A stretch of DNA of 64,000 nt from an uncultured Candidatus Saccharibacteria bacterium (GCA_964436545.1 CAYTCJ010000006.1:4729-68728), one strand, 5' to 3'; counted from the first letter of the stretch, positions 587 through 46,801 are shown. Numbers and translations are program-made. The notes: a model not told the origin generated them from the sequence alone.

Positions 587-618
587 CCCCTCCCTATCCC
601 TCCCCATAAAGGGGAGGG
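587..618. repeat. family-B GC hairpin element CCCTCCCTATCCCTCCCC-ataaa-GGGGAGGG (intergenic copy)
   Basis: Perfect 8-bp stem; same 33-bp motif recurs (rc) at 5838-5871 and 39834-39866. Confidence 0.7.
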
Positions 619-642
619 AACCAAGTAATAAAGATCTATTGA

Positions 643-1809
643 TTATTCAGACTTCACTTCTTCTTTTGCGACCTCCGATATTCCTTCTGACTGATCGGCT
701 GATTCGCTGATCGGCTGATTCGCTGATTCAATCTTCTCTCCATTAATATCTATTTTCCAGCCGGTAAGCCGAGCAGCGAGGCGGACATTTTGCCCCGCTT
801 TACCAATGGCTAAAGACAACTGATCTTCCATCACGCCCACTTTCGCTTCTTTGGTTTCTTCGTTTAATTGCACGTTTAAAATTTTTGCCGGAGACAAACT
901 ATTGGCAATAAATTTTACCGCATCGTCGCTATATTCAATAATATCAATTTTTTCCCCGCCCAATTCCGCCATAACCGTTTGCACGCGACTCCCTTTTTGC
1001 CCCACGCAAGCCCCAATGGGGTCTATGCCGTCTTGGTTGGCAATTACCGCAATCTTGCTTCGGCTACCGGCTTCCCGAGCAACAGATTTAATTTCCACAC
1101 TTCCGCTATAAATTTCCGGCACTTCAATTTCAAATAATTTTCGGACCATATCCGGATGGCAACGAGACAGAGTAATCTTTGGACCTTTTGCCGCCGGTTC
1201 CACATGCAAAATTAAAACTTTAAGTCTTTGTCCAATAGTATATCTTTCGCCTCGAATTTGTTCGGAAGGAAACAAAACTCCCACCGACTTACCCAAATCC
1301 ACCAGCACGGTATCGCCCTCAATTCTTTGAATAATGCCGTTTTGCAAAGTGCGTTCTTTGGCTTTAAAATCGGAAAATTGCATATTGCGTTCCGCTTCTC
1401 TTAATTTCTGAATAATTACTTGTTTAGCGGTTTGCGCGGCAATGCGACCAAAATTGGTGCCACTCTTGGGTGTAATGTCGGTTTTAATAACCTCGCCCAC
1501 TTTATAGCTTTTTTTAATTTTTCTGGCTTCTTCCAAAGCAATTTGCTTCTGCGGATCGAATACCACTTCTGCGTCCGGATTTTCCAAACTTGCTTGCACA
1601 AACTCATCACTTACCACTTCTTTGACATCAAAAACTTTAACCGATAAATTTTCCGGACTAAATTCTACCTGCACGTTTTGTTCTTTAGTGCCATAATCTT
1701 TTCTAAAGGCTGCGGCTAAAGAAATTTCTATCATACCTAAAATTTCGGCGCGGGAAATACCTTTTTCTTCTTCAATTTGTCTTAAGGCTTGTTCTAATTG
1801 ATCGTTCAT
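643..1809 (-). CDS. nusA: transcription termination/antitermination factor NusA
   Basis: N-terminal NusA domain, S1 and KH regions recognisable (e.g. QIALEEARKIK, GACVGQKGSRVQ); acidic C-tail with 16-bp tandem repeat at 695-730. Confidence 0.9.
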   Translation of the reverse strand: MNDQLEQALRQIEEEKGISRAEILGMIEISLAAAFRKDYGTKEQNVQVEFSPENLSVKVFDVKEVVSDEFVQASLENPDAEVVFDPQKQIALEEARKIKKSYKVGEVIKTDITPKSGTNFGRIAAQTAKQVIIQKLREAERNMQFSDFKAKERTLQNGIIQRIEGDTVLVDLGKSVGVLFPSEQIRGERYTIGQRLKVLILHVEPAAKGPKITLSRCHPDMVRKLFEIEVPEIYSGSVEIKSVAREAGSRSKIAVIANQDGIDPIGACVGQKGSRVQTVMAELGGEKIDIIEYSDDAVKFIANSLSPAKILNVQLNEETKEAKVGVMEDQLSLAIGKAGQNVRLAARLTGWKIDINGEKIESANQPISESADQSEGISEVAKEEVKSE

Positions 1810-1982
1810 AAGTTTAGTGATTAGTGCTTAGTAGTTAGTAAAATCTTATTTGTCGTATTAGATTTATTTGTCCTATCTGACCGATTGGTCTTATTATTTT
1901 TGTTTTCCCCTTTTCTCTCCCGCCTGCCATCGCCTACGGCTCAGGCCAATGGCGGGCAGGCTTTAATCCCATTCAACCTATT

Positions 1983-3056
1983 TTAATTAGTGAGTTTAAA
2001 TGTTGAGAGAATTTTTAAAACATCTCCAGAGTTATGTTCAGCGCCCCAAACTAAAACTGCAAAATAAACCCTATTATTATTGCCTGGAGCATAATAAATT
2101 TCAAATTGTCCGCCTGGGCCAGATAAAACTTTATTATAGTGGGTAAAATTTACAATTTTTTTACTTTCAATTTTTGTCTCCATCGCACCTTCCCAATTTA
2201 GCTGACCTTCAACAATACTCGCATTTAAATTCGTAATTTCTTTCTCATAAGTTACCGCAGTCAAGTTTCTTTTCTGAATCTGTATTTTAATACCTAACGG
2301 ATTACCTCGTTCATACTTGGCATCGTCAGCATTATAATTTACCAGATTATGTTCTCCCCAAACCCTAAAGTTTGTTGGGTATTTTATTTCATACCCATCC
2401 TTCATATTGGTATAAGTCTTCCAATTAGATGCTTCAGCTTGATCTGTAAATTTAAAAGTAGAAAGAATTTTGGGAATCTCAAAATTTATTTTACTTACAT
2501 CCTCAGGTAAAGCATTAAAATGAGTGTAAGTGCTGTAATAGTAAACCCTATCTTTATCTTCAGTAATTTTTCCATCAACTGTGCTGACATTACTTTTATC
2601 CTTATTTACCACCATAATGGAAAAGGGTGCCACGTACCCACAAACTTCATCGGTTACTTGCATAACACACTTAGTTTTATCAACCGTTGGCACCGCAAAC
2701 TGTAAAAACGTTGCCGAACCCACACCTTGACTGCCTTCAGAAGAAAAAACTTTATACCCTTTCCACGCATCGGTTAAAGTCAACTCAAAACCAAATTTCT
2801 CGTTTTGGTAAGTCTGCCAACTTTTAACAACATTCCGGTCACTCTCTTCTAAGCTTTCCGGTTTGGGTAATAATGGCTTGTTTTCTACCACCGGACTCAC
2901 CACCGGTTTGGCGGTTAATAAATACACAATTGCCACCAATAACATAACAATTACTCCCAAAAGGCTAATGATGATTGGTTTATTAATTGTAGCTTGGGCC
3001 TTAACTAAATTTTGCTCAACAGGATTTTGATTATCCATAAATTTTTTTAACTCCAA
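1983..3056 (-). CDS. hypothetical membrane-anchored secreted protein with internal domain duplication
   Basis: N-terminal TM helix; two homologous halves ending ILSTFKFT / ILSTFKLTN. Confidence 0.5.
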   Translation of the reverse strand: MELKKFMDNQNPVEQNLVKAQATINKPIIISLLGVIVMLLVAIVYLLTAKPVVSPVVENKPLLPKPESLEESDRNVVKSWQTYQNEKFGFELTLTDAWKGYKVFSSEGSQGVGSATFLQFAVPTVDKTKCVMQVTDEVCGYVAPFSIMVVNKDKSNVSTVDGKITEDKDRVYYYSTYTHFNALPEDVSKINFEIPKILSTFKFTDQAEASNWKTYTNMKDGYEIKYPTNFRVWGEHNLVNYNADDAKYERGNPLGIKIQIQKRNLTAVTYEKEITNLNASIVEGQLNWEGAMETKIESKKIVNFTHYNKVLSGPGGQFEIYYAPGNNNRVYFAVLVWGAEHNSGDVLKILSTFKLTN

Positions 3057-3202
3057 ATCTATCTAATCTTTCCAAATTTTTCCCTTCGGATTATTCGGAT
3101 ATAATTTTTCGGATTAGGATCGGTTAATTTAATAAAAAAGATGAGCACGCGCTCATCATTATACTCTTCAATCATCTGTGCTGTCTGTATAACCCTTCAA
3201 AC

Positions 3203-3703
3203 TCAATTCCAGTCCTCTACCACACTTGAGTAAATTTTAACAGATTCAAGAATCTTGTCAACCCCGTTAGAGGCAGGTTGCCCTAGAGCAACCGTAGACA
3301 TGCCAGAGACATGTCGGCCTCTAACGGGGTCAATACCCCTCATAATTACTACGCACACATCTATTTGAGGATTAAGCTCTTTATATTGCTGATTTTGGAT
3401 TAAAAATATTTTAACCGCTTTGAGTATTTTTCTTTGCTTATAAATATCTACGGCATCTAAAGCGTTGCCAAAAAAACCTTTTTCTTCCGCTCTTGTTTTT
3501 ACCTCAACAAATATTATCTTGTTTCCCTGCGTTGCAATAAAATCTATTTCACCTAACCGTTTACCTTTCTTATTATACTCGTTCTGTGCAATAATTTTAT
3601 ATCCTAATTTTTTATATTCTGCCTGAGCCAACTCTTCACCCAGTTGTCCTAAAGTTTTAGGCTTAGCTATGCCCTGAGGAGACTTTTTAAACCAATTTAA
3701 CAT
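3203..3703 (-). CDS. YraN family (UPF0102) endonuclease carrying an in-frame 77-bp palindromic insertion
   Basis: GEIDFIA..G..IIFVEVKTR motif; about 25 extra residues DPVRGRHVSGMSTVALGQPASNGVD encoded by the palindromic element. Confidence 0.75.
   Translation of the reverse strand: MLNWFKKSPQGIAKPKTLGQLGEELAQAEYKKLGYKIIAQNEYNKKGKRLGEIDFIATQGNKIIFVEVKTRAEEKGFFGNALDAVDIYKQRKILKAVKIFLIQNQQYKELNPQIDVCVVIMRGIDPVRGRHVSGMSTVALGQPASNGVDKILESVKIYSSVVEDWN
3257..3333. repeat. family-A palindromic element (GTCAACCCCGTTAGAGG...CCTCTAACGGGGTCAA), in-frame inside yraN-like gene
   Basis: 17-bp terminal inverted repeats plus internal GACATG..CATGTC hairpin; second copy at 10194-10271. Confidence 0.8.
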
Positions 3704-3712
3704 AAGAACAGC

Positions 3713-3790
3713 GTTTAGGCTTTAGCGTTTAGTAAGTAGCCAAAACTGTATAATATTCCGGCTAAACGCTACTTACTACTTACTAAATGC
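3713..3790. repeat. intergenic imperfect inverted repeat built from TAGTAAGTAG / CTACTTACTA and GCGTTTAG / CTAAACGC blocks
   Basis: Read directly; related GTAAGT/ACTTAC low-complexity blocks recur in other intergenic spacers. Confidence 0.5.
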
Positions 3791-4194
3791 TATTTTGGTA
3801 AGTACTTTATTTTTACCTGCTCTTTTTCCCACTGAAGTTTGTCTGTTTGGTAAGTTTTTATTCCTCTAAAAATTAAGGCCCCTAACCAAACTAAAAATAT
3901 TAAGAGTAATAAAATTGCCAAAAAATGCGAACCAAAAAATCTTACTAGCTGTACTCGCGCGCCATACCACACAATTTGCGCTAAACCTAAAAACAAAAAT
4001 GGACCAAACAACTTACCCCGCAATTTGGCATCAATGGGGCTTAGAGCAAATTTTTGGGCTAACTTTAAAATGCCGGCAATAATTAAAGCCACCAAACCTA
4101 AAAATAAAAATAATTTATCTATAGGCTCCACTTGAACTCGGTTAATTTGAAACAAAAATTGTGAAGTAAAAATTGTTTTTAACATAGTTTTCAA
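3790..4194 (-). CDS. hypothetical integral membrane protein (4 predicted TM helices)
   Basis: Hydrophobic segments in translation; no recognisable family. Confidence 0.4.
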   Translation of the reverse strand: MKTMLKTIFTSQFLFQINRVQVEPIDKLFLFLGLVALIIAGILKLAQKFALSPIDAKLRGKLFGPFLFLGLAQIVWYGARVQLVRFFGSHFLAILLLLIFLVWLGALIFRGIKTYQTDKLQWEKEQVKIKYLPK

Positions 4195-4299
4195 CTATAC
4201 AAATTAGTCAAATCAACAAATGTTTACAAATAAATTAAACAAAAACATTTGGTATCCGTAAGTATTTGTAAATTTGTTTTCATTCGCGGATTTGAAAAA

Positions 4300-4833
4300 T
4301 TATTTTAAAAATAACACAGCGTAATGATACCCATCGGCTTCTAAATCTTTCCCTTTTCTAAAGCCTGCTTTCATTAATACCATTTCCGCCATAGTTTGGT
4401 CAAGTCGGTTTTGCATAGGCGGACCAATGGGAGAAAGTTCCTTTTTCCATTCAATTACCACAATTTTCCCCCCGGTTTTAAGGATTCTATACGCATTCTT
4501 TAACAACATTTCTCTGCCTTGGCCAATTTCGTGCATAATATTACTTAACACCACCATATTAACGCTATCGGCTTCTATATCTAAAAGCGGTTTGGCTAAA
4601 TCCGCTCTTACCACTTTAATGTTTCTGTAACCATATTGGTTAGCAATAGAAATGGTGGCAGCGAGTTTACTCTCTTGCACATCTACAGCAATTACCGCAC
4701 CTTCCGGACCGGCTAATTGAGCCGAAGGCAAAACATAAAAGCCATTACCACAGCCGAGGTCAGCCACCACTTCCCCGCGCATGAGTCCGGTTTGGGCAAT
4801 GATTGAAGATGGGTTAATAAATTTTGTTAACAT
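4300..4833 (-). CDS. class I SAM-dependent methyltransferase
   Basis: Motif I VADLGCGNGFY and downstream methyltransferase fold motifs. Confidence 0.75.
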   Translation of the reverse strand: MLTKFINPSSIIAQTGLMRGEVVADLGCGNGFYVLPSAQLAGPEGAVIAVDVQESKLAATISIANQYGYRNIKVVRADLAKPLLDIEADSVNMVVLSNIMHEIGQGREMLLKNAYRILKTGGKIVVIEWKKELSPIGPPMQNRLDQTMAEMVLMKAGFRKGKDLEADGYHYAVLFLK

Positions 4834-4906
4834 TTTGATTTTATCTAAGTCTTATGAGCTCTATCCGACTTATTAGTCTTCAATTTAATTTGAACATATT
4901 GTGAAA

Positions 4907-5197
4907 TTATGTTTCTATATCTTCCTGAGCAGAAACTGCCATGTCAACAGCTAAACTTTCTAATCTACCATACTCGGACATAAGAGCTTGTTGTCTTTCT
5001 TCGAGACTGGCTTTAATAGATTTTCTTTTATATTCAGCTTCAGTTAAATCCTTAAAACTTGGCGCTACGCTCTGTCCAGAAAAAGCTAATTCACTTGCCA
5101 TCCTGGATTCACTAAACCGGCTAGCCAAAGGCATTGTGGAAATTTCGCCAATCAACTCACTAATTTTTTGAATAGCTTCCTGCAGAGGCCTTCCCAC
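4907..5197 (-). CDS. hypothetical small protein (GTG start); possibly 5'-truncated by a frameshift at a T9/A9 homopolymer 5215-5223
   Basis: ORF track; upstream ATG at 5288 in the -1 frame terminates within the homopolymer region. Confidence 0.35.
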   Translation of the reverse strand: MGRPLQEAIQKISELIGEISTMPLASRFSESRMASELAFSGQSVAPSFKDLTEAEYKRKSIKASLEERQQALMSEYGRLESLAVDMAVSAQEDIET

Positions 5198-5308: not shown

Positions 5309-6199
5309 CTAATTTATTTCTTGATACAGTTTTTGTATAGCAATAGCCTTGCTGTCATTTCCAATTTCCACTAGCACCCCATTAATACCCATAGCCCCAG
5401 TCTCTTCCAGTTCATTCACAAATTTGGCATTAGGATCTAAAAATTTTACTAAAGCGTTTTCAAATTTTACACCCAAAGCGCTGTCCCGACTGCCAGTCAT
5501 GCCCACATCACTAACATAAGCAGTGCCGTTCTTCATTATATGCGCATCGGCAGTAGCCACATGCGTATGCGTCCCTACCACCACCGACACTCTACCATCT
5601 ACATAAAAACCCAGAGTCTTTTTTTCACTGGTAGCTTCGGCGTGGAAATCTATAAATATTATATCACCTTTTTGCGCTTCGTTCTTAAGTAACTTATCCA
5701 CTTCCCAAAACGGATTACCCAGCTTCCCATCAAAAAACTTTTCACAAAATACCTGCCCGTGAAGGTTAATAACTAGGAATTGTTGATTTTTCATCCTCCC
5801 CTCGCCCTGCTCATCAAGGAAGGGGGAAGATTTTTTTCCCTCCCCTTGGTGGGGAGGGATAGGGAGGGGGGTCAAATTTTTACTAAACCTATAGTACCCA
5901 AACCCGGGAAAACTACCTTCCAAATTAGCCGGACGAATCAGTTTTGGGTATTGTTCAAAACTGACTTTGGCTAATTCCGCTTTATCGAAAATATGATTGC
6001 CGGAAGTAAAACAATCTACTCCTAAGCTGTCAATTTCCGCTAAGGTGGAAGGCGTAACCCCTTTCCCGTGCGCAAGATTTTCTACGTTGATAATGGTGAC
6101 GTCTGGCTGATATTTTTCTTTCCACATAGGCAAAACCTGGGCGAGAATGTTTCGTCCAGGTTTACCCACCACATCACCGATGAATAAGATTTTTGCCAT
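5309..6199 (-). CDS. TIGR00282/YmdB-like metallophosphoesterase with in-frame GC-hairpin insertion
   Basis: MAKILFIGDVVG...GNH...THTHV motifs; extra segment PLPIPPHQGEGKKSSPFLDEQGEG encoded by 5795-5871. Confidence 0.8.
   Translation of the reverse strand: MAKILFIGDVVGKPGRNILAQVLPMWKEKYQPDVTIINVENLAHGKGVTPSTLAEIDSLGVDCFTSGNHIFDKAELAKVSFEQYPKLIRPANLEGSFPGFGYYRFSKNLTPLPIPPHQGEGKKSSPFLDEQGEGRMKNQQFLVINLHGQVFCEKFFDGKLGNPFWEVDKLLKNEAQKGDIIFIDFHAEATSEKKTLGFYVDGRVSVVVGTHTHVATADAHIMKNGTAYVSDVGMTGSRDSALGVKFENALVKFLDPNAKFVNELEETGAMGINGVLVEIGNDSKAIAIQKLYQEIN
5795..5871. repeat. composite family-B GC hairpin element inside ymdB-like CDS (core CCCTCCCC-ttggt-GGGGAGGG at 5838-5858)
   Basis: rc of 5838-5871 is near-identical to intergenic element 587-618. 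Confidence 0.75.
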
Positions 6200-6236
6200 T
6201 TATATTCCACTAATTCACCAATAATTACGAATCACA

Positions 6237-6617
6237 CTAATTTACTACCCTTTTCGTTAATACACCTTTTTTTGAAAAAATTAACAATATTCCTAATTTT
6301 ACACTATTTGACTTCAGATACCCGTAAACCTGCCTAATGTGTTGCGGATATATTTCATTAGCCACCTTAAGCTCTACAACTATTTTTGCATCATCCTTTA
6401 CTAACAAAAAATCTAAATAATATCTACCAATGGATTTTCCTCCTACTTCTAAAGGAGTCAAAAGTTGCTCAGTAACTTTAAACCCCAAATCGACAAAAGC
6501 ATTCTTTAATCCACGATAGTAATATTTCTCCTGATATCCATAACCTAATTCATTAAAAACTTTTATGGCAGCACCTACTATCTCATAACTTTTTTCTTTA
6601 TAAATAAGCTCTGCCAT
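6237..6617 (-). CDS. GxxExxY protein (PD-(D/E)XK-like)
   Basis: YEIVGAAIKVFNELG ... ELKVANEI...Y signature. Confidence 0.75.
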   Translation of the reverse strand: MAELIYKEKSYEIVGAAIKVFNELGYGYQEKYYYRGLKNAFVDLGFKVTEQLLTPLEVGGKSIGRYYLDFLLVKDDAKIVVELKVANEIYPQHIRQVYGYLKSNSVKLGILLIFSKKGVLTKRVVN

Positions 6618-6661
6618 TTTTCGTGTTATTAGTGTTAATTCGTGAATTAGTGGATTATCAA

Positions 6662-8239
6662 TTACCTCGCATATTCTATTACTCTAGTTTCCCTAATCAC
6701 ATGCACTTTAATTTCCCCAGGGAATTTGAGTTCGTTCTGAATTTGATTGGCAATATCTCTAGCCATTTTTTGTGCACCAAAATCATCAACTCTTTCCGGA
6801 AACACAAACACACGAAGCTCTCGCCCGCCTTGAATGGCATAAGTTTTTTGCACACCTTCGTAACCGTTGGCAATATTTTCCAAGTCCGTAAGCCGTTTAA
6901 TATAGTTTTCCAAACTGTCTTTACGAGCCCCCGGACGACTTCCGGAAATATTATCGCACACGTCCACAATTACCGCTTCAATACTGGTAGCTCTCTGGGC
7001 CTTCCCCGATACATCGGTATCGTGGTGATGGCTGGCAATGGCCTCTTTGATTCTTTCGTCTAAACTGAATTTCTCCGCAATCTTCACGCCTAATTCCACA
7101 TGACTACCTTCCAAATCTTGGTCCAAAGCTTTGCCAATATCGTGAAGGAGCGCGCCTTGTTTAACAATATTTACATCCGCGCCTAATTCTTCGGCGAGCA
7201 ATGCGCCAATTTTGGCCATTTCCACACTGTGCCTTAAAATATTTTGCCCATAAGAGGTTCTAAACAACATCCTCCCCACCAAATGCACTAATTTTGGAGG
7301 GAAATTGGTAATACCCAATTCGTAAACGGCTTGTTCGCCGGCTTGTTTAATTTGCTCATTAATTTCCGCCTTGCTCTTCTCATAAGCCTCTTCTATTCTG
7401 GCCGGATGAATTCTGCCATCTACTAATAACTTTTCTAAAGTTAATTTGGCAATATGCCTTCTAATGGCATTAAAGCCCGAGAGCACCACGGTGTCCGGCG
7501 AATCATCTATTAAAATCTCCACGCCCATCATTTGTTCAAAAGCGCGAATATTTCTGCCTTCTTTACCAATAATTCTCCCTTTCATTTCTTCGCTGGGAAT
7601 TTGCACTACCGTGGTAGTAACTTCATTCGTCACTTCGCTCGATACTCTTTCCAAAGCTTGAGCGACTAAATCCCTCGCTTCTTTGTCTGCGGTTTCATAA
7701 GCTTCATTGAGTAATTTCTTTTGCAGATCCGCCATTTCCTCTCTCACCAATTTTTCCGCATTTTCCAAAAGTACTTTTTTGGCGTCTTCTCTGGAAAGTC
7801 CGGCAATTTTTTCCAAATTTTCCAACTGTTTTTGCTTGACCTGTTTGATTTCTTCTTGCAAAACTTTAATTTCTTCTTGCTTGTGTTCAATGTCTTGCTT
7901 GGCTTTGTCCAAATTTAAAGATTTGGTTTCCAAATCTTTTTCTTTTCTATCGACTCTTTCTTCAAACCTTACCATTTGCGCTCGAAAATCCATTTCTTGC
8001 TTTTTGGCACTCTCCACCATTTCCAAAGACTTGGCTTTGGCCTCTAACAGCATTTCTTTTTCTTTATTTTTTGCCTCATCTAAAATTCTTTCAGCCTTGG
8101 CTTCCGCGCTTCCAATTTTTTTGCCTGCCAAATGCTGACGAATGGCATAGCCTATCCCAATCCCTAACACAGTACCAACCACTAAATACATAAGCATTAA
8201 CATAAAAAATACCTTACATCGGCAATGTAAAGCTGGCAA
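6662..8239 (-). CDS. rny: ribonuclease Y (alternative start at 8203)
   Basis: N-terminal TM, long coiled coil, KH domain (GRIIGKEGRNIR), HD domain (LLHDIGK...HH). Confidence 0.9.
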   Translation of the reverse strand: MPALHCRCKVFFMLMLMYLVVGTVLGIGIGYAIRQHLAGKKIGSAEAKAERILDEAKNKEKEMLLEAKAKSLEMVESAKKQEMDFRAQMVRFEERVDRKEKDLETKSLNLDKAKQDIEHKQEEIKVLQEEIKQVKQKQLENLEKIAGLSREDAKKVLLENAEKLVREEMADLQKKLLNEAYETADKEARDLVAQALERVSSEVTNEVTTTVVQIPSEEMKGRIIGKEGRNIRAFEQMMGVEILIDDSPDTVVLSGFNAIRRHIAKLTLEKLLVDGRIHPARIEEAYEKSKAEINEQIKQAGEQAVYELGITNFPPKLVHLVGRMLFRTSYGQNILRHSVEMAKIGALLAEELGADVNIVKQGALLHDIGKALDQDLEGSHVELGVKIAEKFSLDERIKEAIASHHHDTDVSGKAQRATSIEAVIVDVCDNISGSRPGARKDSLENYIKRLTDLENIANGYEGVQKTYAIQGGRELRVFVFPERVDDFGAQKMARDIANQIQNELKFPGEIKVHVIRETRVIEYAR

Positions 8240-12416: not shown

Positions 12417-12497
12417 CCCCGAAGCTTTAGCAAAGGGGGAGTATGAGATAGTGCTATCTTTACGTAATTATAACTTATTAATGTCCAATGTCAATTA

Positions 12498-20741: not shown

Positions 20742-20770
20742 AAGGTTTGACCCCCAAAAAATAGTGGGGG
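20742..20770. repeat. GC hairpin TGACCCCC-aaaaaatagt-GGGGGTCA immediately downstream of pilin gene 3
   Basis: 8-bp perfect stem; same C-run/G-run class as family B. Confidence 0.55.
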
Positions 20771-20779
20771 TCAAAAATA

Positions 20780-21193
20780 TTACGGACCGGCACCAGTACC
20801 GGCGCTAGAAACGAAATTGGAAACCACATTGACAATTACGTAAGATAAAATAATTATCACAATACCAATTAACGCGTTGACGGCTGTGCCTTTGCCTTTT
20901 TCCGCTGCTTCTTCGTTACCGGCAGAAGTAATGTATTGGAACCCGCCAATAATTAAGAACAAAACCGCTACGGCAAAAGCTATGCCCAATAGCCAATTAA
21001 TTACTGTTCTAATTAAAGAATTCACATTAGTTCCGGCGTTACAGTTAAGACCACTGGAAGGATCGCATTGTAGTCCTCGGTTTAACTGAGCGTCAGCCAC
21101 TAACAACGGAGCAAATAGTAGCAAACTTACCAAAGCGATTTGCGCTACGGATAACCAATTAATCTTTTTTAATGTTTGTATCACTTGTGTCAC
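20780..21193 (-). CDS. secreted pilin-like protein 3
   Basis: Signal peptide, CDPSSGLNCNAG, then LIIGGFQYITSAGNEEAAEKGKGTAVNALIGIVIIILSY module. Confidence 0.7.
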   Translation of the reverse strand: MTQVIQTLKKINWLSVAQIALVSLLLFAPLLVADAQLNRGLQCDPSSGLNCNAGTNVNSLIRTVINWLLGIAFAVAVLFLIIGGFQYITSAGNEEAAEKGKGTAVNALIGIVIIILSYVIVNVVSNFVSSAGTGAGP

Positions 21194-21267
21194 CCCCTCT
21201 CTTATGCCCTCTTATGTCCTTCTCTTCCCTTTCTCTTCCATTAAGAGTTAGGAAAGAGGGGGTAAGA
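21192..21267. repeat. inverted repeat ACCCCCTCTCTT...AAGAGGGGGT flanking a CT-rich spacer between pilin genes 3 and 4
   Basis: Read directly; family-B-like. Confidence 0.5.
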
Positions 21268-28320: not shown

Positions 28321-28378
28321 AGAAATTAGAAATTACTTGTCCCCCAAAGCCTTGGCGAAGGGGGAGAAATTAGAAATT
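28321..28378. repeat. GC hairpin TCCCCC-aaagccttggcgaa-GGGGGA (28340-28366) flanked by 14-bp direct repeats AGAAATTAGAAATT
   Basis: Direct repeats at 28321-28334 and 28365-28378 read directly; looks like a target-site duplication around a small inserted hairpin. Confidence 0.55.
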
Positions 28379-39526: not shown

Positions 39527-40360
39527 TTATCGATATTGATTAATTTCATCTCGGAGTTTTTTTGCTTCTTCTTGAGGGTTATTTGCAAAAATTATCCCGC
39601 GGGAGGAGTTAATAATCATGCCTAATTTTTGTGAATTGATGCCCGCTTTAACCACCGCTTCTACATCTCCACCTTGGGCGCCCACTCCCGGCACTAACAA
39701 AGTCATATCACCCACTATTGCCCGAACCACCTTCATTTCCTCAGGGTAAGTGGCGCCCACCACCAGCATACAATTGTGGTTATAATTCCAGTCTTGGGAT
39801 ACTTTTTCTGCCACCATTTGCCAAATGGATTTCACCCCTCCCTTACCCTCCCCATCTAGGGGAGGGAACGGCACACAAAGATCTTGCAATTCTCCGGCTC
39901 CGGGATTAGAAGTCCGACAGAGAATAATCGATGCTTTATCTGCCCTGTCTAAAAATGGTTTTAAGGCTTCTTTGCCTAAGTACGGATGTAAAGTAATCGC
40001 ATCAAAACCCATTTCATCAAATACCGCTTTCACATAACCTAAATTAGTATTGCCAATATCCGCCCGTTTGGCATCACATATGGTTAAAACATCCGGATAT
40101 TTATTCTGCAAATAATTTATGGTCATTTTTAACTCTTTTAAACCCTGTTCACCTCTGGCTTCATAAAATGCCATGTTGGGCTTAAAGGCAGAAACAAATT
40201 CTACAGTCTCATCTATTATCCATTTATTAAACTCAAACTGAGGAAACTCTTTGGCTTTAAAATCGGCAGGAATTTTTTCAAACTCACTATCTAAACCCAC
40301 ACACACTAAAGAATTAACTTTTTTGGCTCTTAAATTATATTTTTCAATATTTTGATGCAT
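39527..40360 (-). CDS. pyrF: orotidine 5'-phosphate decarboxylase (long type) with in-frame GC-hairpin insertion
   Basis: LVCVGLDSE, MAFYEA motifs; inserted PFPPLDGEGKGG encoded by 39834-39866. Confidence 0.85.
   Translation of the reverse strand: MHQNIEKYNLRAKKVNSLVCVGLDSEFEKIPADFKAKEFPQFEFNKWIIDETVEFVSAFKPNMAFYEARGEQGLKELKMTINYLQNKYPDVLTICDAKRADIGNTNLGYVKAVFDEMGFDAITLHPYLGKEALKPFLDRADKASIILCRTSNPGAGELQDLCVPFPPLDGEGKGGVKSIWQMVAEKVSQDWNYNHNCMLVVGATYPEEMKVVRAIVGDMTLLVPGVGAQGGDVEAVVKAGINSQKLGMIINSSRGIIFANNPQEEAKKLRDEINQYR
39834..39866. repeat. family-B element CCCCTCCCTTACCCTCCCC-atcta-GGGGAGGG, 33 bp, in-frame in pyrF
   Basis: Near-identical to 587-618; length divisible by 3. Confidence 0.8.
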
Positions 40361-40995: not shown

Positions 40996-41042
40996 AAATT
41001 TTTTATATTTAGGACTTACTGGTGCGTAAGTCCTAGTATTAA

Positions 41043-41438: not shown

Positions 41439-41467
41439 AAATTAGTTAATCTTAATGATAAAAAACT

Positions 41468-42418
41468 TTATTTTAATTTCCAACTGTGCGATTTATAAAA
41501 AATAAAAATAATGGCGACCGCATAAATTAACAAATCTTCCACTTCCCACACTCCCGATTGAATCGCCATAGTGGTAACTGAGGTGGCAAAGAAACCGGCC
41601 ATCACCACTGTGTTAATTCTAATTATAAAACCCAAAACATACAACAGACCAAATATGGTTTCCATAAAACCGGCACTCAGCACAAAAAGCTGATTAGAAA
41701 AATTAAACCCCAACATTTTTACAAAATTCCAATTATGTTCGTTTAAAAACTGCAAAGCCAATTCCGGGTGTAACAATTTTTCGGTAAAGGCTAAAACCAC
41801 TAAAGACACCCCGGCGCCCGTGCGTAATATGGGCACTGCCCAAGCTTGGTAAACGAATAATTTATGAGTTTCGGACAACTCACTTAAATATATAAACAGG
41901 GCAATGGCTAAAAGCAATAAATTTTCCAAATAAAATTCTATACCTCCCAACCCACCGGCCACTAAATACAAACCACCTAGAGCCAGACCTGCCCATTTTG
42001 GGTAAACATTAACAATTAACATTACCCCAATTATGCCTTGTGCAACTTGCAAAACTTGTTGCCATAAACCACTCACGGGAATTTGTGGCACTAAAATAAT
42101 TTGCCAAAACCCACTGATTACCACTAAAAATATTCCCACTAAAATTTTAAAAATTCTATAAATGGCCTTTTGGTTTTTCTCCCCAAACTCTAAAATTTTT
42201 TTCGGTTCCTTTAACTTATGGTTCAAAACTTTCGCTAAGCCAATCAGCAATAACGTTACCACCACCCAAACTCCCACGGGCTTAGACCACCAACTAAAAA
42301 ACTCTATGGTCTGATTGGAGGCTTTGACTGCCTCTACATCCACAAACCATTTAATGTGTGCCAAAGCCACTTGCGGTAAACTGAAGGCGAGAACTAAACC
42401 TAAAAAAAACTTTTTCAT
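41468..42418 (-). CDS. hypothetical integral membrane protein (signal peptide plus about 7 TM)
   Basis: Hydrophobicity pattern only. Confidence 0.45.
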   Translation of the reverse strand: MKKFFLGLVLAFSLPQVALAHIKWFVDVEAVKASNQTIEFFSWWSKPVGVWVVVTLLLIGLAKVLNHKLKEPKKILEFGEKNQKAIYRIFKILVGIFLVVISGFWQIILVPQIPVSGLWQQVLQVAQGIIGVMLIVNVYPKWAGLALGGLYLVAGGLGGIEFYLENLLLLAIALFIYLSELSETHKLFVYQAWAVPILRTGAGVSLVVLAFTEKLLHPELALQFLNEHNWNFVKMLGFNFSNQLFVLSAGFMETIFGLLYVLGFIIRINTVVMAGFFATSVTTMAIQSGVWEVEDLLIYAVAIIFIFYKSHSWKLK

Positions 42419-42436
42419 ATTTTTATTTTAAAAAAT

Positions 42437-42482
<46 letters not shown>

Positions 42483-42523
42483 TACTGGTTTTTTCAACCC
42501 CGCACCAAAATCATATTATTAGA

Positions 42524-42616
42524 TGGCGGAAGGGGTGGGATTTGAACCCACGGTCCCGATAATCTCGGGACAGCGCGTTTCGAGTGCGCCGCACTAGACC
42601 ACTATGCGACCCTTCC
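42524..42616 (-). tRNA. tRNA-Ser (anticodon CGA), long variable arm
   Basis: Anticodon loop CTCGAAA; variable arm TGTCCCGAGATTATCGGGAC; T arm CGTGGGTTCAAATCCCACC; encoded CCA; one A-C mismatch in anticodon stem. Confidence 0.75.
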
Positions 42617-42770
42617 TATTTTACTAACATATAACTAACTTACTGTCAGCTGATTACTTATTATAGTATAAACAAAAACCCAAAGCTTGTCAGCTTTGGG
42701 GTGTTTAATAAAAAACACTCGCCCGCATTACTGTGTTTCACCTACAGAGTTATTAAAAATTAATGAAACA

Positions 42771-43961
42771 CTATAATTTATTAGATTTAAACTTAGATCC
42801 ATTTAAATTACTCAAAACGCTAGATTCAAAATACCGATTAGCTTGTCTGGTTTGTTGATGTTTTTCCTGAGCCAACTTAATTAAGCTATTCAACAATTCC
42901 GGTAAATCCACTCCGCTAGCTTGCCATAAATGATGATAAAGCGTACCGGGCAAAGGATTCACTTCGTTAGCAAAAAATTCTTGAGTTTGTCGGTTAATTA
43001 AAAAATCCACTCTGGCAATCCCGCTACACTCTAATAATTTATAAACCGCAATGGCTGTCTGTTTAATTTTTTCCGTCATTGCCTCACTTACCCTTGCAGG
43101 GATAACCACGCTCCTTTGGCTTTTGCCGGTTTGCGCCCCGCCATCGGTTAAATATTTATCTTCAAAGCTAAACAAATCCATACTATATAAAGACTCCTGA
43201 AGCTCCGAGGGTTTAACCTCCCTATTACCCATTAAACAACAAGTAACATCCATTAAATTTTCCACCACCTCCTCTACGACCACTTTTTCATCGTAATAAA
43301 AAGCTACTTCTAATTTTTGAACCAATTGCTGTTCGTCTTTCGCCTTACCAATCCCAATAGACGAACCCAAATGCGCCGGCTTCACCATAAGTGGAAACTT
43401 TAATGATTGGCTGATTTTCTGATGCACTGCTTGCTGATGTGTTTGCCAGTCATGTTTATTAAAATACACAAATTTAGTCGTGGGAATTCCGGCATCTCGC
43501 ATTAAAATTTTGGTCAAAGCTTTATCCATAGCAATGGCCGAGGCTGGCACCCCACAACCTACATACGGCACCCCTAACATTTCCAACATGCCTTGTATGG
43601 TGCCATCTTCCCCGTATGTTCCATGAAACGCCGGAAACGCCAAATCAATGGTAATGGTTTTTCCCAAGATGCCTTTTTTCTTAAACACCAACTTACCCAG
43701 AGACTCTTGCATATCCAAATAATATTCCGCGTATTGAGAATTTTCTTCAACTTTATTATTCGGATCCGCAAACATTTTTAAATTTCCCAATTCCTCCCCG
43801 AGCATCCATTTTCCGGCTTTGGAAATATACACCGGAACTACCGAATAGTTTAACCCCTTAAGGCCACCAATAATTAACTGGGCGGTAATTATGGAAATAT
43901 CATGTTCCACACTTCCGGAGCCAAAAAACACACCAATATTTTTGAATGAATTATGAGTCAT
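42771..43961 (-). CDS. ddl: D-alanine--D-alanine ligase
   Basis: ATP-grasp motifs; N-terminal GVFFGSGSVEHDISI... Confidence 0.85.
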   Translation of the reverse strand: MTHNSFKNIGVFFGSGSVEHDISIITAQLIIGGLKGLNYSVVPVYISKAGKWMLGEELGNLKMFADPNNKVEENSQYAEYYLDMQESLGKLVFKKKGILGKTITIDLAFPAFHGTYGEDGTIQGMLEMLGVPYVGCGVPASAIAMDKALTKILMRDAGIPTTKFVYFNKHDWQTHQQAVHQKISQSLKFPLMVKPAHLGSSIGIGKAKDEQQLVQKLEVAFYYDEKVVVEEVVENLMDVTCCLMGNREVKPSELQESLYSMDLFSFEDKYLTDGGAQTGKSQRSVVIPARVSEAMTEKIKQTAIAVYKLLECSGIARVDFLINRQTQEFFANEVNPLPGTLYHHLWQASGVDLPELLNSLIKLAQEKHQQTRQANRYFESSVLSNLNGSKFKSNKL

Positions 43962-44020
43962 AAATTTTGAATTTGGCTTTAAAAATTTTTGTCATTTTTA
44001 TTATTTTAAACTTTTGTCAT

Positions 44021-45835
44021 TTATATATACTGGTCGCCCCAATCGTTTTGAAACAAAATAACATCATTCGGCTGTAAAAGATTTTTTAATTCCGCATGAG
44101 CTTGTTCTGCACTATTAAACCATATAATAATTGGTAAGTTGTAAGTTGTAAGTTGTAAGTTCTCTCTCTTGCTTAATTCATAATTCTTAATTCCTAATTC
44201 TATGTATCCAGTTACGCTATTCCTAATAAGTATAACCACATCTGCCACCTTTGCCAACTGCTTGCCAATCTCTAAATGGACTGTTTTTACTTCACTCCCT
44301 GTTTCCACCAACCCCGGAGTAATATAAATTTTTCTTCGGTTAGGAAACTGAGCCAAAGTTTTTATGGCTTCTTTGACCCCAACTGAATTCCCATTATACG
44401 CATCATCAATCACCAAAATATTTCCCGGTCTTAAAATAGGTTCTAAACGATGCTTCACAGGTTGAATTTTTTCTATACCTTGTTTGATTGCTTCGTTACT
44501 CATACCCAACTCTCTCGCTATGCTTATAGCGCAGTCCACATCTCCAAGTGCATACTCTCCAAGTAATTTTACAAAAATTTTCACTCCCTTTCCTTCTTCT
44601 CCTGAATTAAAGTTTCCTCTTTCTCCTTCTTCTCCTGAATTAAAGTCTCCTCTTTCTCCTTCCCGCCGTGAATTAGAGCTTTCTCTTTCTCCTTCTTTTT
44701 CTGAATTAAAGTTTCCTCTTTCTCTTTCTTCTCCTGAATTAGAGCTTTCTCTTTCTCCTTCCCCTCCTATATTAGTGTTGCCCCTCGCTTCTTCCCCCCC
44801 TATATTAGGGGGGGTTAGGGGGGGTATTTCCAATTCCCAACCTAATCTCACTGCATCAAACTTTGCATGTTTGATATTTGATATTTGATATTTGATATTT
44901 TTTTGCTTGGGTAAAATATAATTTTGATAATTCTCCACAACATTTTCATCGTCCCCATTTAATAAACAGAGTGCATCCGCTTTGGCATTTTGCACAATTT
45001 CAAAAATGGTTTGCGTAACTGCTTTTATACTGCCCATTCTTTCCAAATGCGCTTCGCTAATCCCTGTCACTACCGCCATATCCGGTTTCACCAAACTGCA
45101 AATGGCTTTTATGTCGCCTTTGTAGTGCTCCCCCATTTCGATAATAGCAATTTCAATATTTTCTTCTCCCTTTAGGGGAGAAGGTGCCTGCGGGGCAGAT
45201 GAGGGGTTGGGGGCATTAAAATTTTTCAACACCCACCTCGCTATCCCGACCGGCGTATTCACACTCTCCGGTGTGGCAAACACCTGAAACCTCAAACCCA
45301 AAACCGCTTTCAAAACTTCCTTCATAGTCGTCTTACCATAACTTCCGGCAATCCCAATAATCGACAGCTCTTTACGGGCTGTCGCCCCGGGCGAGTGCAT
45401 CCGAGACCCGAGATCCGGTGCCACAGTCAAACTTTGAATTTTTGATTTAGCCTTATAAATAATTACCTGTTTTAATAACCAATCCACTGGCCATAAAATT
45501 ACTATCCCGATTAAATAAAAAATAAAAAATAAAAAATAAAAAATTAACAAATAAACAAACCCTAAAAACCATAATTCATAATTCTTAATTCCTAATTCTG
45601 GCAAGCGGTCTAAAAACTTCCAGAAAATTAACCATGGCAGAGTTAGATAAAGCCCGATTGCCAATAACAAAATTAGGGTCGCTTTTCCTGTCCAGACTAA
45701 ACTCTTTCTCATGGGCGCCTTGGGTGGAAAATACCCTTTTTGCCGGAGTAACTTTAAATACCGTCCCAGCTCGTAATTTTCCAGCTGTAAAAGATAAAGT
45801 TGATATTTAATGATTTTTATAAGATTTACTAACAT
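44021..45835 (-). CDS. Mur ligase family protein (MurF-like by ddl adjacency) with atypical N-terminal TM extension, internal 13-aa tandem repeats and GC-hairpin insertions
   Basis: GIAGSYGKTTMKE P-loop, Mur ligase middle and C domains; N-terminal 150 aa hydrophobic; true start uncertain. Confidence 0.65.
   Translation of the reverse strand: MLVNLIKIIKYQLYLLQLENYELGRYLKLLRQKGYFPPKAPMRKSLVWTGKATLILLLAIGLYLTLPWLIFWKFLDRLPELGIKNYELWFLGFVYLLIFYFLFFIFYLIGIVILWPVDWLLKQVIIYKAKSKIQSLTVAPDLGSRMHSPGATARKELSIIGIAGSYGKTTMKEVLKAVLGLRFQVFATPESVNTPVGIARWVLKNFNAPNPSSAPQAPSPLKGEENIEIAIIEMGEHYKGDIKAICSLVKPDMAVVTGISEAHLERMGSIKAVTQTIFEIVQNAKADALCLLNGDDENVVENYQNYILPKQKNIKYQISNIKHAKFDAVRLGWELEIPPLTPPNIGGEEARGNTNIGGEGERESSNSGEERERGNFNSEKEGERESSNSRREGERGDFNSGEEGERGNFNSGEEGKGVKIFVKLLGEYALGDVDCAISIARELGMSNEAIKQGIEKIQPVKHRLEPILRPGNILVIDDAYNGNSVGVKEAIKTLAQFPNRRKIYITPGLVETGSEVKTVHLEIGKQLAKVADVVILIRNSVTGYIELGIKNYELSKRENLQLTTYNLPIIIWFNSAEQAHAELKNLLQPNDVILFQNDWGDQYI
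44105..44132. repeat. GTAAGTT x4 tandem heptamer inside the Mur ligase 3' region
   Basis: Read directly. Confidence 0.7.
44172..44203. repeat. 28-bp direct repeat TAATTCATAATTCTTAATTCCTAATTCT, copy 1 (copy 2 at 45568-45598); both inside the Mur ligase ORF, both encode LGIKNYEL
   Basis: Exact 28-mer identity read directly. Confidence 0.85.
44581..44830. repeat. about five tandem ~39-bp repeats encoding 13-aa GE(E/R)G.R..(N/S)(F/S)NS units, followed by C7/G7 hairpin CCCCCCCTATATTAGGGGGGG
   Basis: Read directly; in-frame in Mur ligase. Confidence 0.8.
45163..45183. repeat. family-B-like hairpin CTTCTCCC-ttta-GGGGAGAAG in-frame in Mur ligase (encodes SPLKGEE)
   Basis: 8-bp stem. Confidence 0.6.
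45568..45598. repeat. 28-bp direct repeat copy 2 (see 44172-44203)
   Basis: Exact identity. Confidence 0.85.
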
Positions 45836-45871
45836 ATCTTTTTCGAGTGGACAATTCGCGCGAATTGTCCA

Positions 45872-46801
45872 CTAAATAAATTTAGCTAAAATTTTTACAA
45901 ACTCCTCAGGCTGATCCAAAAAACTATAATGTCCGGCATTCTTTAAAATTAGCAATTGGGAATTGGGAATTAAAAAATTCATTCGCTTCCCAAAAGCAAT
46001 TGGCGTATCCTTGTCGTCCTCGCCGGTAATTATCAAAGTTGGGATTGTAATATCCTTCATATCCTTACTTAAATCTTCGTTCACCACTTTTAAAAAAGTT
46101 TCCTTTAACGCGGGTAGAGCTAAATAATCTTCTGCCCCCAGGCTATGATAAATTTTTTTTCTCAAACCTTGCATGAATCCCGGTTTAAAAATCGGTTTAA
46201 TAATTTTAGCCACAACGCCCATTAAATTTTTTTTCCAGGCTGATGTAACAAACCCAGCGCTATCAACTAAAACCAATTTTAATATCACCCCCTGTCCCCC
46301 TCTTATTTTAAGAGGGGGGAACGGATTCGGGAGATTTGACATAGCGCACAGCTTAATTCCTACCCGCCCACCAAAACTGTGCCCCACTATAATGACATTT
46401 TTTAATGCCAACTTTTCTATAAACGCTTTGACAATTTCCGCGTAATCCCCCACACTCATTCCGTATTTTATTTCCTCTCCCTTGTGGGGAGGGTTAGAGC
46501 CTGCCCTGAGCGATAGCCGAATGGGGAGGGGGGAATCTCCAAACCCCGGCAAATCCAAAGCATAAATTGTGTACTGCTGATTTACTGACTGGCTAATTAA
46601 CTTACTAACTTCCCCCCACACTTCCTTACTACTCCCCCAACCATGCAAAAACAACAAACACTTATCGCCTGTCGATTGTGTGCCTACATAACTAATTAAT
46701 TGGTTATTGATAATTATTTGATTTTTTTCCATAAACATATAATACATTGCCCAATAGCTATTTACAATATATAATATCCAAGTAAAAATGGAATGTAGCA
46801 T
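45872..46801 (-). CDS. alpha/beta-hydrolase-fold protein with two in-frame GC-hairpin insertions
   Basis: HGWGSS, GHSFGG nucleophile elbow, C-terminal GHYSF; insertions at 46287-46324 and 46474-46540. Confidence 0.75.
   Translation of the reverse strand: MLHSIFTWILYIVNSYWAMYYMFMEKNQIIINNQLISYVGTQSTGDKCLLFLHGWGSSKEVWGEVSKLISQSVNQQYTIYALDLPGFGDSPLPIRLSLRAGSNPPHKGEEIKYGMSVGDYAEIVKAFIEKLALKNVIIVGHSFGGRVGIKLCAMSNLPNPFPPLKIRGGQGVILKLVLVDSAGFVTSAWKKNLMGVVAKIIKPIFKPGFMQGLRKKIYHSLGAEDYLALPALKETFLKVVNEDLSKDMKDITIPTLIITGEDDKDTPIAFGKRMNFLIPNSQLLILKNAGHYSFLDQPEEFVKILAKFI
46287..46324. repeat. GC hairpin CCCCCTCTT-atttt-AAGAGGGGGG in-frame in hydrolase (encodes NPFPPLKIRGGQG)
   Basis: 9-bp stem. Confidence 0.7.
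46474..46540. repeat. composite GC hairpins CCTCTCCC-ttgt-GGGGAGGG ... GGGGAGGGGGG in-frame in hydrolase (encodes ...NPPHKGEEI...)
   Basis: Read directly. Confidence 0.65.

Follow-up and report, generated by a model that had tools for sequence, protein, structure and literature searches.

Repeats with an intrastrand-triplex layout beside a DUF559 nuclease gene and in frame within protein-coding genes of a Doudnabacteria-like genome

BoxC repeats and the "potential intrastrand triplex" (PIT) design that they follow have reportedly been treated by Bachellier in the 1990s and by Hoyne and Maher in 2000. First noted in Escherichia coli, these repeats were surveyed under the name TMECO by Holder et al. 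in 2015, who counted 3610 copies across 262 genomes of proteobacteria and found related motifs rich in G/C to be plentiful in cyanobacteria, Thermus and Neisseria (PMC4666352). According to the same survey, the location of TMECO is "always intergenic", its inverted pairs combine one TTA type with one CCG type, it is linked to small local indels or deletions, and no associated gene was found (PMC4666352). Here we describe a family of units with this general design in a 64,000-nt stretch of DNA presented as that of an uncultured Candidatus Saccharibacteria bacterium (GCA_964436545.1, CAYTCJ010000006.1:4729-68728; hereafter, the window), where two inverted units bracket a gene of the DUF559 nuclease family and further units lie in frame within the genes for YmdB, PyrF, a Mur ligase and an alpha/beta hydrolase.

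The mitochondrial DNA of yeast contains GC clusters, mobile palindromic islands of high GC content within a genome rich in AT that can also occur in frame in var1. The systems of repetitive extragenic palindromes, REP/REPIN-RAYT, were reportedly described by Nunvar in 2010, Bertels and Rainey in 2011 and Ton-Hoang in 2012, and the Vsr-like, or EDxHD, homing endonucleases and inteins are said to have been treated by Dassa et al. in 2009 and, with I-Bth0305I, by Taylor et al. in 2011. Rickettsia palindromic elements (RPE), in the portion of PMC10969869 that reports on Ogata et al. 2000, are ~100-150 bp long, restricted to Rickettsia, and encode conserved peptides of ~30-50 residues.

The best protein matches of the proteins encoded in the window come from Candidatus Doudnabacteria (candidate phyla radiation/Patescibacteria), and the same YmdB and PyrF proteins were found in an independent Logan assembly. 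All family counts refer to these 64 kb of one AT-rich genome (~38% G+C). A preliminary description of this DNA had reported three near-identical units, and these are indeed there: a 34-nt unit, CCCCTCCC-TAT-CCCTCCCC-N5-GGGGAGGG-AA, occurs at the unlinked sites 587-620, 39835-39868 and, as the reverse complement, 5836-5869, with 88-94% pairwise identity over the 34 nt, linker and flanks included. The related units noted earlier in the Mur ligase gene (44794-44828 and 45163-45183) and the hydrolase gene (46287-46318 and 46474-46540) are present as well, as are the translated peptides PLPIPPHQGEGKK, PFPPLDGEGKGG, SPLKGEE, NPFPPLKIRGGQG and NPPHKGEEI. The over-representation relative to shuffled sequence is borne out: the core CCCTCCCC-N3-8-GGGGAGGG matches three times, always with an N5 loop, against 0.00 expected from 100 dinucleotide shuffles, and there are 8 perfect hairpins, 6 bp or longer, in which the 5' arm is homopyrimidine and the 3' arm homopurine, against 0.42 +/- 0.57 (maximum 2) in 100 dinucleotide shuffles. 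Perfect hairpins with the purine arm first are absent (0 in the window vs 0.35 in the shuffles), and the polarity of the family is therefore fixed, which makes it more than a collection of plain "GC hairpins". With one mismatch allowed, the window holds ~10 family members, 6 of them within open reading frames (ORFs), and ~6 of the roughly 13 units counted in all are in coding sequence; given that 88% of the window is coding, the enrichment per base is therefore intergenic, not genic, at a density that we estimate from these counts to be ~7-fold above that of coding DNA. Thus, the enrichment in coding DNA considered in the preliminary description was not found. Folding of six units as DNA gave -9 to -11 kcal/mol (z -2.1 to -3.7), energies that refer to Watson-Crick hairpins only, with triplex formation predicted from the layout. 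Overall, the units constitute a dispersed, over-represented family in a Doudnabacteria-like genome.

The units consist of three blocks, a feature that goes beyond the preliminary description: the two arms of the hairpin, first pyrimidine and then purine with a short loop between them, are followed, 2-4 nt on, by a third block that mirrors the purine arm, an arrangement that would permit G.G-C and A/T.A-T triplets, as in GGGGAGGG-AT-AGGGAGGGG or GGGGGGG-TTA-GGGGGGG, and the opposite strand reads pyrimidine, pyrimidine, loop, purine. This layout (pyrimidine arm, loop of 3-6 nt, purine arm, short loop, purine block) is found at 587-620, 5836-5871, 39835-39868, 44794-44828, 46287-46318, 217-250 and 1-32. 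In the five testable copies of the window, the similarity of the third block to the purine arm is 1.0 as a mirror and 0.86-0.875 as a direct copy; among 130 informative hairpins flanking DUF559 genes, the mirror fits better in 72 and the direct copy in 6 (Wilcoxon p 1.6e-12). On these scores, a mirror repeat was preferred, and the third block as a direct repeat or part of an alternative hairpin was rejected. Covariation between an arm and its own third block, assessed by permutation, is marginal (0.708 vs 0.689 +/- 0.006), the variants being too alike for this test, and the comparison of mirror and direct copies told more.

The exact TMECO pattern with 9-nt stems, CCCTCNCCC-N3-6-GGGNGAGGG-N3-GGGNGAGGG, has no match in the window, where the stems are CCCTCCCC, CCCCCCC or CCCCCTCT; the 8-nt stems and the lack of an exact match therefore indicate a variant subfamily, not TMECO proper. 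The likeness to BoxC/PIT/TMECO comprises the three G/C-rich blocks, the dispersed occurrence, inverted pairs, local indels, wide phylogenetic spread and the TTA second loop of TMECO type A, which is present at 44794-44828, 145-204 and 46474-46540. Judged by this layout, the "family B" hairpins, which had been taken for a second, genome-specific family, are an 8-nt-stem variant (CCCTCCCC vs CCCTCNCCC) of these widespread intrastrand triplex motif repeats. Furthermore, TMECO was reported as strictly intergenic and gene-less, whereas here about half of the copies are in frame within genes and the family brackets a DUF559 gene.

This gene lies between two inverted units in the segment 217-620 (Table 1), an arrangement that the preliminary description did not include. 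The encoded protein matches Pfam PF04480 (E 3e-40) and NCBIfam DUF559, with weak similarity to Vsr; the closest structure is PDB 3HRL (E 4e-25), and the conserved residues are D47, E58, D60 and H64. The upstream unit, identical at 33 of 34 positions in the sister genome introduced below, folds at -11.1 kcal/mol (z -3.3) and has a mirror score of 1.0, and its third block occupies the Shine-Dalgarno position of the gene. The downstream unit (mirror 1.0, direct 0.86) is degenerate in the window and intact, as TAG-CCCCTCCCCAGCCCTCCCC-ACAAG-GGGGAGGG, at the same place in the sister contigs L002 and L005. An apparently empty DUF559 site in the near-identical contig L004 proved to be an assembly N-gap and is not evidence.

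The association of these units with DUF559 genes recurs well outside this genome. We compared 80 metagenomic loci encoding DUF559 relatives (45-78% identity, 31-69% G+C), with at most one mismatch allowed per hairpin arm. In 52 of the 80 loci, a hairpin lies within 200 nt upstream of the gene, and 52 have one downstream; 43 are flanked on both sides, and the hairpin density is 4.04 per kb near DUF559 compared with 0.069 per kb at distances above 300 nt, a 59-fold difference. The identity of the third block is 0.71 when gene-proximal and 0.48 when distal, and this block is often found 5-10 nt before the start codon in a Shine-Dalgarno-like position, suggesting that, when facing the gene, it can serve as the ribosome-binding site. 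The flanking variants, namely CCCTCCCC, CCTCCCCC with GGTGGGGG, and CCCTCTCCC with GGGTGAGGGG, have a common layout. In finished sequences of cultured isolates, units occur beside DUF559 in 6 of 6 cases (Deinococcus, Neisseria, Synechocystis, Azospirillum, Sphingomonas and Photobacterium). In E. coli K-12 (NC_000913.3 1351039-1351850, our locus L210), ycjD, the DUF559 gene, terminates within a degenerate BoxC, and ~190 nt downstream there is a perfect TMECO, CCCTCGCCCCTCTGGGGAGAGGGTTAGGGTGAGGGG, with the 3' end of ycjD partly duplicated in between. In the literature, we found no paper that ties DUF559/YcjD to these repeats and none that describes the repeats in frame within genes, although earlier descriptions of either are possible.

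The copies within genes were compared with those of relatives, in particular a sister genome that is ~87% identical in DNA and whose syntenic contig L006 allowed a region-wide comparison. The sister genome lacks the copies in ymdB, pyrF, the hydrolase gene and part of the Mur ligase gene, and has one copy that is absent from the window; therefore, the coding copies are lineage-specific in-frame insertions, not conserved residues, and the polymorphism between relatives runs both ways. The 84-nt insertion in ymdB consists of an intact three-block unit (5836-5871) and a degenerate hairpin (5793-5829). The closest YmdB orthologue, P0001 (268 aa), shows 92% identity in the part outside the insert; the 28 residues LTPLPIPPHQGEGKKSSPFLDEQGEGRMK are missing from it and from every orthologue of 265-268 aa, and at the corresponding DNA site, the sister contigs L002 and L004 read TCTAAAAAT|AATCAACAA, with AAAAAT flanking the insert in the window. 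The insert is a gap in the alignment to the Bacillus subtilis YmdB structure 4B2O, and in an AlphaFold2 model, it is a coil between two strands, with a predicted local distance difference test score (pLDDT) of 46-55 against a mean of 84.9. Many other Doudnabacteria orthologues contain different Pro...Gly-Glu-Gly inserts in the same loop.

The pyrF element is similarly a gap against a solved structure (3QW3), and the PyrF orthologue P0122 (89% identical) has QDLTSADGKALWQ in place of QDLCVPFPPLDGEGKGGVKSIWQ in the window. The element is absent from L006, in which pyrF is 88.7% identical in DNA and retains GATGG..TAAGG, an apparent remnant, and is present at the same site, with 31 of 34 positions identical, in contig L211, where pyrF is only 74.8% identical; the element is better conserved than the gene in which it lies.

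The Mur ligase is 525 aa long in the sister genome compared with 604 aa in the window, with window-only blocks of ~76 and 19-21 residues and one unit, ..SPLKGEEN, common to both. The larger block includes a 33-bp tandem array (44551-44790, ~5.4-6 copies) that encodes (GEEGERGNFNS)n and is absent from the sister genome; its repeats resemble repeated loop and purine arm segments of the adjoining triplex motif. Conversely, a sister-only insert of 57 nt (PSPVLRTSSPTRGEEKNNT) lies directly beside the shared unit at 45163-45215 and reads CCCTCTCC..CCTCCCCC-ACAA-GGGGGGAGG.., starting with CCCTC, the same 5 nt that follow it. The hydrolase is 259 aa long in the sister genome and 309 aa in the window, where SNPPHKGEEIKY and NPFPPLKIRGGQGV are window-only. 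These window-only and sister-only units therefore imply gain and loss in both directions, which fits selfish, unstable DNA that would be tolerated in coding loops. This part of the preliminary description thus holds, whereas its suggestion that the genome exploits the elements has nothing in its favour. Taken together, the alignments to relatives show lineage-specific in-frame insertions in otherwise intact enzymes, with the loop position drawn from the YmdB model. Separately, at 45376-45432, the Mur ligase gene contains a window-only, GC-rich, in-frame insertion of 57 nt (..LTVAPDLGSRMHSPGATARKE..) without pyrimidine and purine blocks, which may be a member of the "family A" of the preliminary description.

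The orientation of the units relative to the host gene varies: in gene sense, the ymdB copy reads pyrimidine-pyrimidine-loop-purine and the pyrF copy pyrimidine-loop-purine-purine. Given that no stop codon is possible in pyrimidine-only or purine-only blocks, the arms read Pro/Leu/Ser and then Gly/Glu/Arg/Lys in any frame and orientation, so that only the loop and the linker can break the frame.

In other phyla, DUF559 domains themselves are inserted in isoleucyl-tRNA synthetase (IleRS), TsaB and DNA methylases (Table 1). Here, translation of the inserted nuclease seems to yield an internal domain that is connected to the host protein by repeat-encoded Pro/Gly linkers such as FPLPFGERVAGEG and PHPNPLPKGERE. 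A search of the IleRS, TsaB and methylase cases with the Hint/intein Pfam models detected no intein domain. By analogy, DUF559 within a gene would behave like a homing endonuclease that does without an intron or intein. A different arrangement was observed in a metagenome-assembled genome of Nitrospira (L083, ORF 285-2423), where DUF559 lies in an apparent intein (C-terminal ...VHNC) of a DNA methylase and two triplex-motif units (PLPARGEGWGG...) are translated just upstream of it.

The spread of the element was assessed with the pattern CCCTCCC-NNN-CCCTCCCC-N3-6-GGGGAGGG (23 specified bases), scanned across one genome per GTDB species. This yielded at least 120 loci, against a chance expectation that we estimate at ~0.1 for even base composition and at most ~10 if all genomes had 70% G+C. 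Among the matches listed are Planctomycetota, Alpha-, Beta-, Gamma- and Deltaproteobacteria, Bacteroidota, Chloroflexota, Nitrospirota, Cyanobacteria and others, with 33-77% G+C; in these matches, the flanks of the elements are not conserved, and inverted pairs with unique spacers of 25-40 nt are common. In the listed loci below 50% G+C, 11 of 24 elements are within open frames of at least 200 aa, and the exact elements of other phyla among the listed matches have, on average, 5.25 of 6 frames open, compared with 4.77 for controls of the same length. Judging from the translations, the putative hosts include an ATP-dependent DNA ligase of Cnuella, a P-type ATPase of Flavobacterium (two copies), a UvrA-like protein (two copies) and a dihydrouridine synthase, and a Planctomycetales protein of 1111 aa contains FPPLDGEGKGG, the very peptide found in PyrF of the window. 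With units in frame in proteins of other phyla, in-frame residence is thus general, contrary to the picture from E. coli.

In their behavior, the units are RPE-like: they occur in frame in unrelated housekeeping ORFs, are absent from orthologues and are translated, with loop tolerance seen here in YmdB only. They are not RPE, to which they have no sequence similarity, and differ in being 21-36 bp long (84 nt for the double insert), present in many phyla, endowed with a triplex-type third block and linked to a nuclease gene. With REP/REPIN-RAYT systems, they share short palindromes that are single or form inverted doublets with a variable spacer, and two inverted copies around one small gene; however, the flanked gene here encodes the PD-(D/E)XK, Vsr-like DUF559 (PF04480), not an IS200/IS605-like HUH Y1 transposase, and whereas REPs are extragenic and species-specific, the present motif is nearly constant across phyla and enters coding regions. 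The likeness to homing endonucleases lies in the Vsr-like nuclease fold family to which DUF559 belongs, the relative in the apparent intein of L083 and the interrupted ileS and tsaB; the IleRS, TsaB and methylase cases are without Hint, intein or intron signature, and homing is proposed by analogy only. The yeast mitochondrial GC clusters are organellar, have other sequences, and possess neither a triplex block nor a nuclease cassette. [quoted passage not shown]

On balance, we consider it probable that these are selfish, unstable triplex-motif repeats that are linked to a DUF559 cassette and translated, when within genes, as tolerated Pro/Gly loop insertions. We further infer that the nuclease drives the mobility of the units. 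Under such a mechanism, the repeats would be the terminal inverted repeats of a miniature DUF559 cassette, and the nuclease would initiate its own copying, with a nick or break followed by homing or gene conversion. Solitary units might be remnants from which the nuclease ORF was deleted between near-identical blocks of the two ends or, alternatively, REP/MITE-like derivatives acted upon in trans, as REPs are by RAYTs. Non-B DNA (a hairpin, possibly a triplex) could promote slippage, which would account for the frequent small deletions, for the nested insertions and for the tandem 33-bp expansion within the Mur ligase gene, and the encoded peptides would be neutral flexible loops, not functional motifs. 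A broader proposal, which we put forward tentatively and regard as somewhat short of an even chance, is that BoxC/PIT repeats are the terminal repeats and solitary derivatives of an unrecognized, bacteria-wide miniature mobile element with DUF559 as its sole gene, the stop-free ends of which would double as ribosome-binding site and Pro/Gly linkers, enabling in-frame life in YmdB, PyrF, IleRS and TsaB without an intron or intein.

Several points weigh against nuclease-driven spread. No transposition or homing event was observed, and the candidate target-site duplications are ambiguous: AAAAAT lies in the AT-rich context of ymdB, and CCCTC belongs to the sister-only insert. DUF559 adjoins just 4 of the 120 listed element loci, so that most copies are solitary. 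In Deinococcus and Synechocystis, the third blocks point away from DUF559, and DUF559 genes could preferentially land in repeats that are their target, not their ends. On its simplest reading, the pyrF element is probably old and lost in the L006 lineage, not a recent insertion. For the two-unit insert in ymdB, simple deletion of a cassette was rejected, given that the third blocks face outward. Furthermore, the TMECOs of E. coli were found to have no transposase, integrase or mobility gene nearby and to show no triplex footprint in vivo (PMC4666352). The evidence on this genome comes from 64 kb only.

Among the alternatives, the units could be non-autonomous REP/MITE-type repeats that are moved by another enzyme with its gene elsewhere in the genome, for example a RAYT or an IS transposase, with DUF559 as cargo or as a neighbor at repeat clusters. 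The predominance of solitary copies would fit this explanation, as would the resemblance of the inverted pairs with unique 25-40-nt spacers to REPIN doublets, the insertion of elements beside one another and the non-uniform polarity of the third block around DUF559. Nevertheless, we consider it unlikely because of the 59-fold enrichment at DUF559 borders with flanks on both sides in 43 of 80 loci, the consistent gene-proximal polarity of the third block and the presence of whole repeat-DUF559-repeat units in frame in unrelated genes; moreover, no transposase gene lies beside the elements here, nor in E. coli (PMC4666352).

To about the same degree, it appears improbable that no mobility is involved, such that the units arose locally, through slippage, template switching or error-prone repair at non-B DNA, and resemble each other owing to convergence on a stable hairpin/triplex design or occasional gene conversion. 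In favor of such local events are the 33-bp tandem expansion beside the Mur ligase motif and the apparent deletion remnant GATGG..TAAGG in the sister pyrF, the same loop of YmdB or PyrF holds different motif variants in different lineages, and TMECO has been tied to small local deletions (PMC4666352). Against this stand the 88-94% identity of the 34-nt copies at three unlinked sites, linker and flanks included, identical units in unrelated genes and phyla, as exemplified by FPPLDGEGKGG in the Planctomycetales protein, and the discrete nature of the sister-only 57-nt insert; the association with DUF559 would also be left unexplained.

Still less likely is that the intergenic copies are host-selected RNA or DNA signals (terminators, mRNA stabilizers or hairpins that sequester the Shine-Dalgarno sequence), with the coding copies as by-products. 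The hairpins are stable (-9 to -11 kcal/mol, z -2.1 to -3.7), and the third block GGGAGGGG, 5 nt upstream of the DUF559 ATG, could switch between a free and a paired state. However, because it is a mirror and not a direct copy, the third block is not designed for alternative Watson-Crick pairing. Intrinsic terminators were rejected as well, the main units being without T-runs and a terminator scan flagging only 51-76 (minus strand), weakly. An Rfam scan of nine element-bearing loci at E<=1 produced no plausible family, just chance microRNA-like matches on palindromes. Both orientations relative to the host gene are found among the copies, and TMECO/PIT showed neither promoter nor terminator activity in earlier experiments cited in PMC4666352. 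Finally, that the host proteins have conserved functional motifs in the Pro...Gly-Glu-Gly peptides, with the nucleotide similarity secondary, is hardly credible and effectively refuted by the orthologue alignments: its sole support is that several orthologues have Pro/Gly-rich peptides at the same loop, whereas the closest orthologues and the solved homologues lack the peptides, copies of the same DNA unit lie between genes and in both orientations, and AlphaFold2 models the peptide as a low-confidence coil.

Table 1. Positions of the repeat units, the DUF559 gene and the insertions discussed in the text (coordinates refer to the window unless a locus is named)
Feature	Position	Strand	Description
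DUF559 gene	255-581	-	108 aa, Vsr-like PD-(D/E)XK nuclease fold; only ORF between two inverted triplex-motif units
DUF559 upstream inverted repeat	587-620	-	gene sense TTCCCTCCCC-TTTAT-GGGGAGGG-AT-AGGGAGGGG, then TAAGA, ATG
DUF559 downstream inverted repeat, degenerate	217-250	-	gene sense CCCCTCC-TTAG-TCCTCCC-CATATCCAT-GGGAGGA; starts 5 nt past the stop codon
ymdB in-frame insertion	5792-5875	-	84 nt = 28 codons, encodes LTPLPIPPHQGEGKKSSPFLDEQGEGRMK
Peptide across ymdB insert, example			PLPIPPHQGEGK
pyrF in-frame element	39829-39878	-	net +30 nt; encodes (C)VPFPPLDGEGKGG
pyrF unit	39835-39868	gene sense	TTCCCTCCCC-TAGAT-GGGGAGGG-TA-AGGGAGGGG
Mur ligase window-only block	44579-44828	-	~76 codons; three-block unit and 33-bp tandem array
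Mur ligase three-block unit	44794-44828	-	CCCCCCCTA-TAT-TAGGGGGGG-TTA-GGGGGGG
Mur ligase unit common to window and sister genome	45163-45215	-	CTTCTCCC-TTTAG-GGGAGAAG, G-rich tail; encodes PSSAPQAPSPLKGEEN
Hydrolase window-only in-frame insertion	46279-46318	-	~36 nt, CCCCCT-GT-CCCCCTCTTA-TTT-TAAGAGGGGG, encodes NPFPPLKIRGGQG
Hydrolase window-only in-frame composite	46454-46540	-	TTCCTCTCCC-TTGT-GGGGAGGG-TTAG-(25-nt insert)-GGGGAGGGGGG, encodes ..SNPPHKGEEIKY..
Three-block unit	1-32	+	CCCCCTCT (mirror block), TAA, TCTCCCCC-ATCAA-GGGGGAGA; meets the window edge
Second hairpin copy	52-72	+	TCTTCCCC-ATCAA-GGGGGAGA, 1 mismatch, third block unclear
Composite unit	145-204	+	TTCCCTCCTC-TTTGT-AGGGAGAG-TTAG-(22-nt insert)-GGGGGAGGGGG
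Nested intergenic hairpin	12417-12445	n/a	TCCCC-GAAGCTTTAGCAAA-GGGGGA
Nested intergenic hairpin	28337-28368	n/a	TTGTCCCCC-AAAGCCTTGGCGAA-GGGGGAGAA
DUF559 in IleRS	L121 1482-5342	-	splits the catalytic domain
DUF559 in TsaB	L199 1102-2187, also L207
DUF559 in N6/N4 DNA methylases	L180, L197		same position in both

The gene-boundary copies listed in the preliminary description are real at 1-86, 145-250, 12417-12445 and 28337-28368, whereas two sites are weak: at 20750-20773 there is an ordinary hairpin that lacks homopyrimidine arms, and 21192-21267 is no more than a degenerate pyrimidine/purine-rich stretch. The unit at 1-32 (-9.3 kcal/mol, z -3.7) lies within a 40-nt tandem duplication spanning 11-86. 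The composite at 145-204 is homologous to that at 46474-46540, and 139-171 is 76-82% identical to 5830-5862 and 46465-46497. The two nested hairpins, 12417-12445 and 28337-28368, are related through a common layout of C-run, small inner hairpin and G-run, the latter folding weakly (-6.4 kcal/mol, z -1.5). A perfect intergenic hairpin of 22 nt at 41012-41033 (GGACTTACGCACCAGTAAGTCC) has no counterpart in the sister genome and is an indel-type palindrome of another family. In turn, the sister contig L006 carries short GC-rich insertions without a counterpart in the window (4147-4185, 3139-3201 and 6070-6095), of which two lie between genes and the third, 26 nt long, is in ddl (net +18 nt), which makes small GC-rich indels a general trait of this lineage.

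The spacer between rny and ymdB, 67 nt long in the sister genome, contains in the window an insertion of ~465 nt with a gene of the PDDEXK_3/GxxExxY family (126 aa, 6237-6617, minus strand) flanked by 43-nt AT-rich inverted repeats; this region (6198-6662) is a second cassette of a small nuclease-fold gene with inverted ends of its own. Nearly all long ORFs of the window are on the minus strand up to ~48.7 kb and on the plus strand from there to 64000, and the GC skew is negative throughout (cumulative -5.3). The switch at ~48.7 kb may reflect a strong replication-strand bias of genes or a divergence point.

Overall, the elements described here belong with BoxC/PIT/TMECO, a kind that is known but unexplained, and occur here as a new variant in a new setting. 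Such repeats are abundant in hundreds of bacterial genomes and tied to local instability, and neither the mechanism of their spread nor an associated gene has been reported. The strong, polar association with DUF559 in metagenomic contigs and isolates provides a testable lead on how the repeats spread. Their distribution over many phyla, the frequent in-frame residence in real proteins and the inverted flanks around the DUF559 gene seem to be unreported in the literature searched: the elements are present in bacteria of the candidate phyla radiation as well as in Bacteroidota and Planctomycetota, and an entire nuclease domain can enter tRNA-synthetase and tRNA-modification genes (ileS and tsaB) with them. 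For genome annotation, this means that unexplained Pro/Gly-rich loop insertions and length variation among orthologues may often be these repeats.

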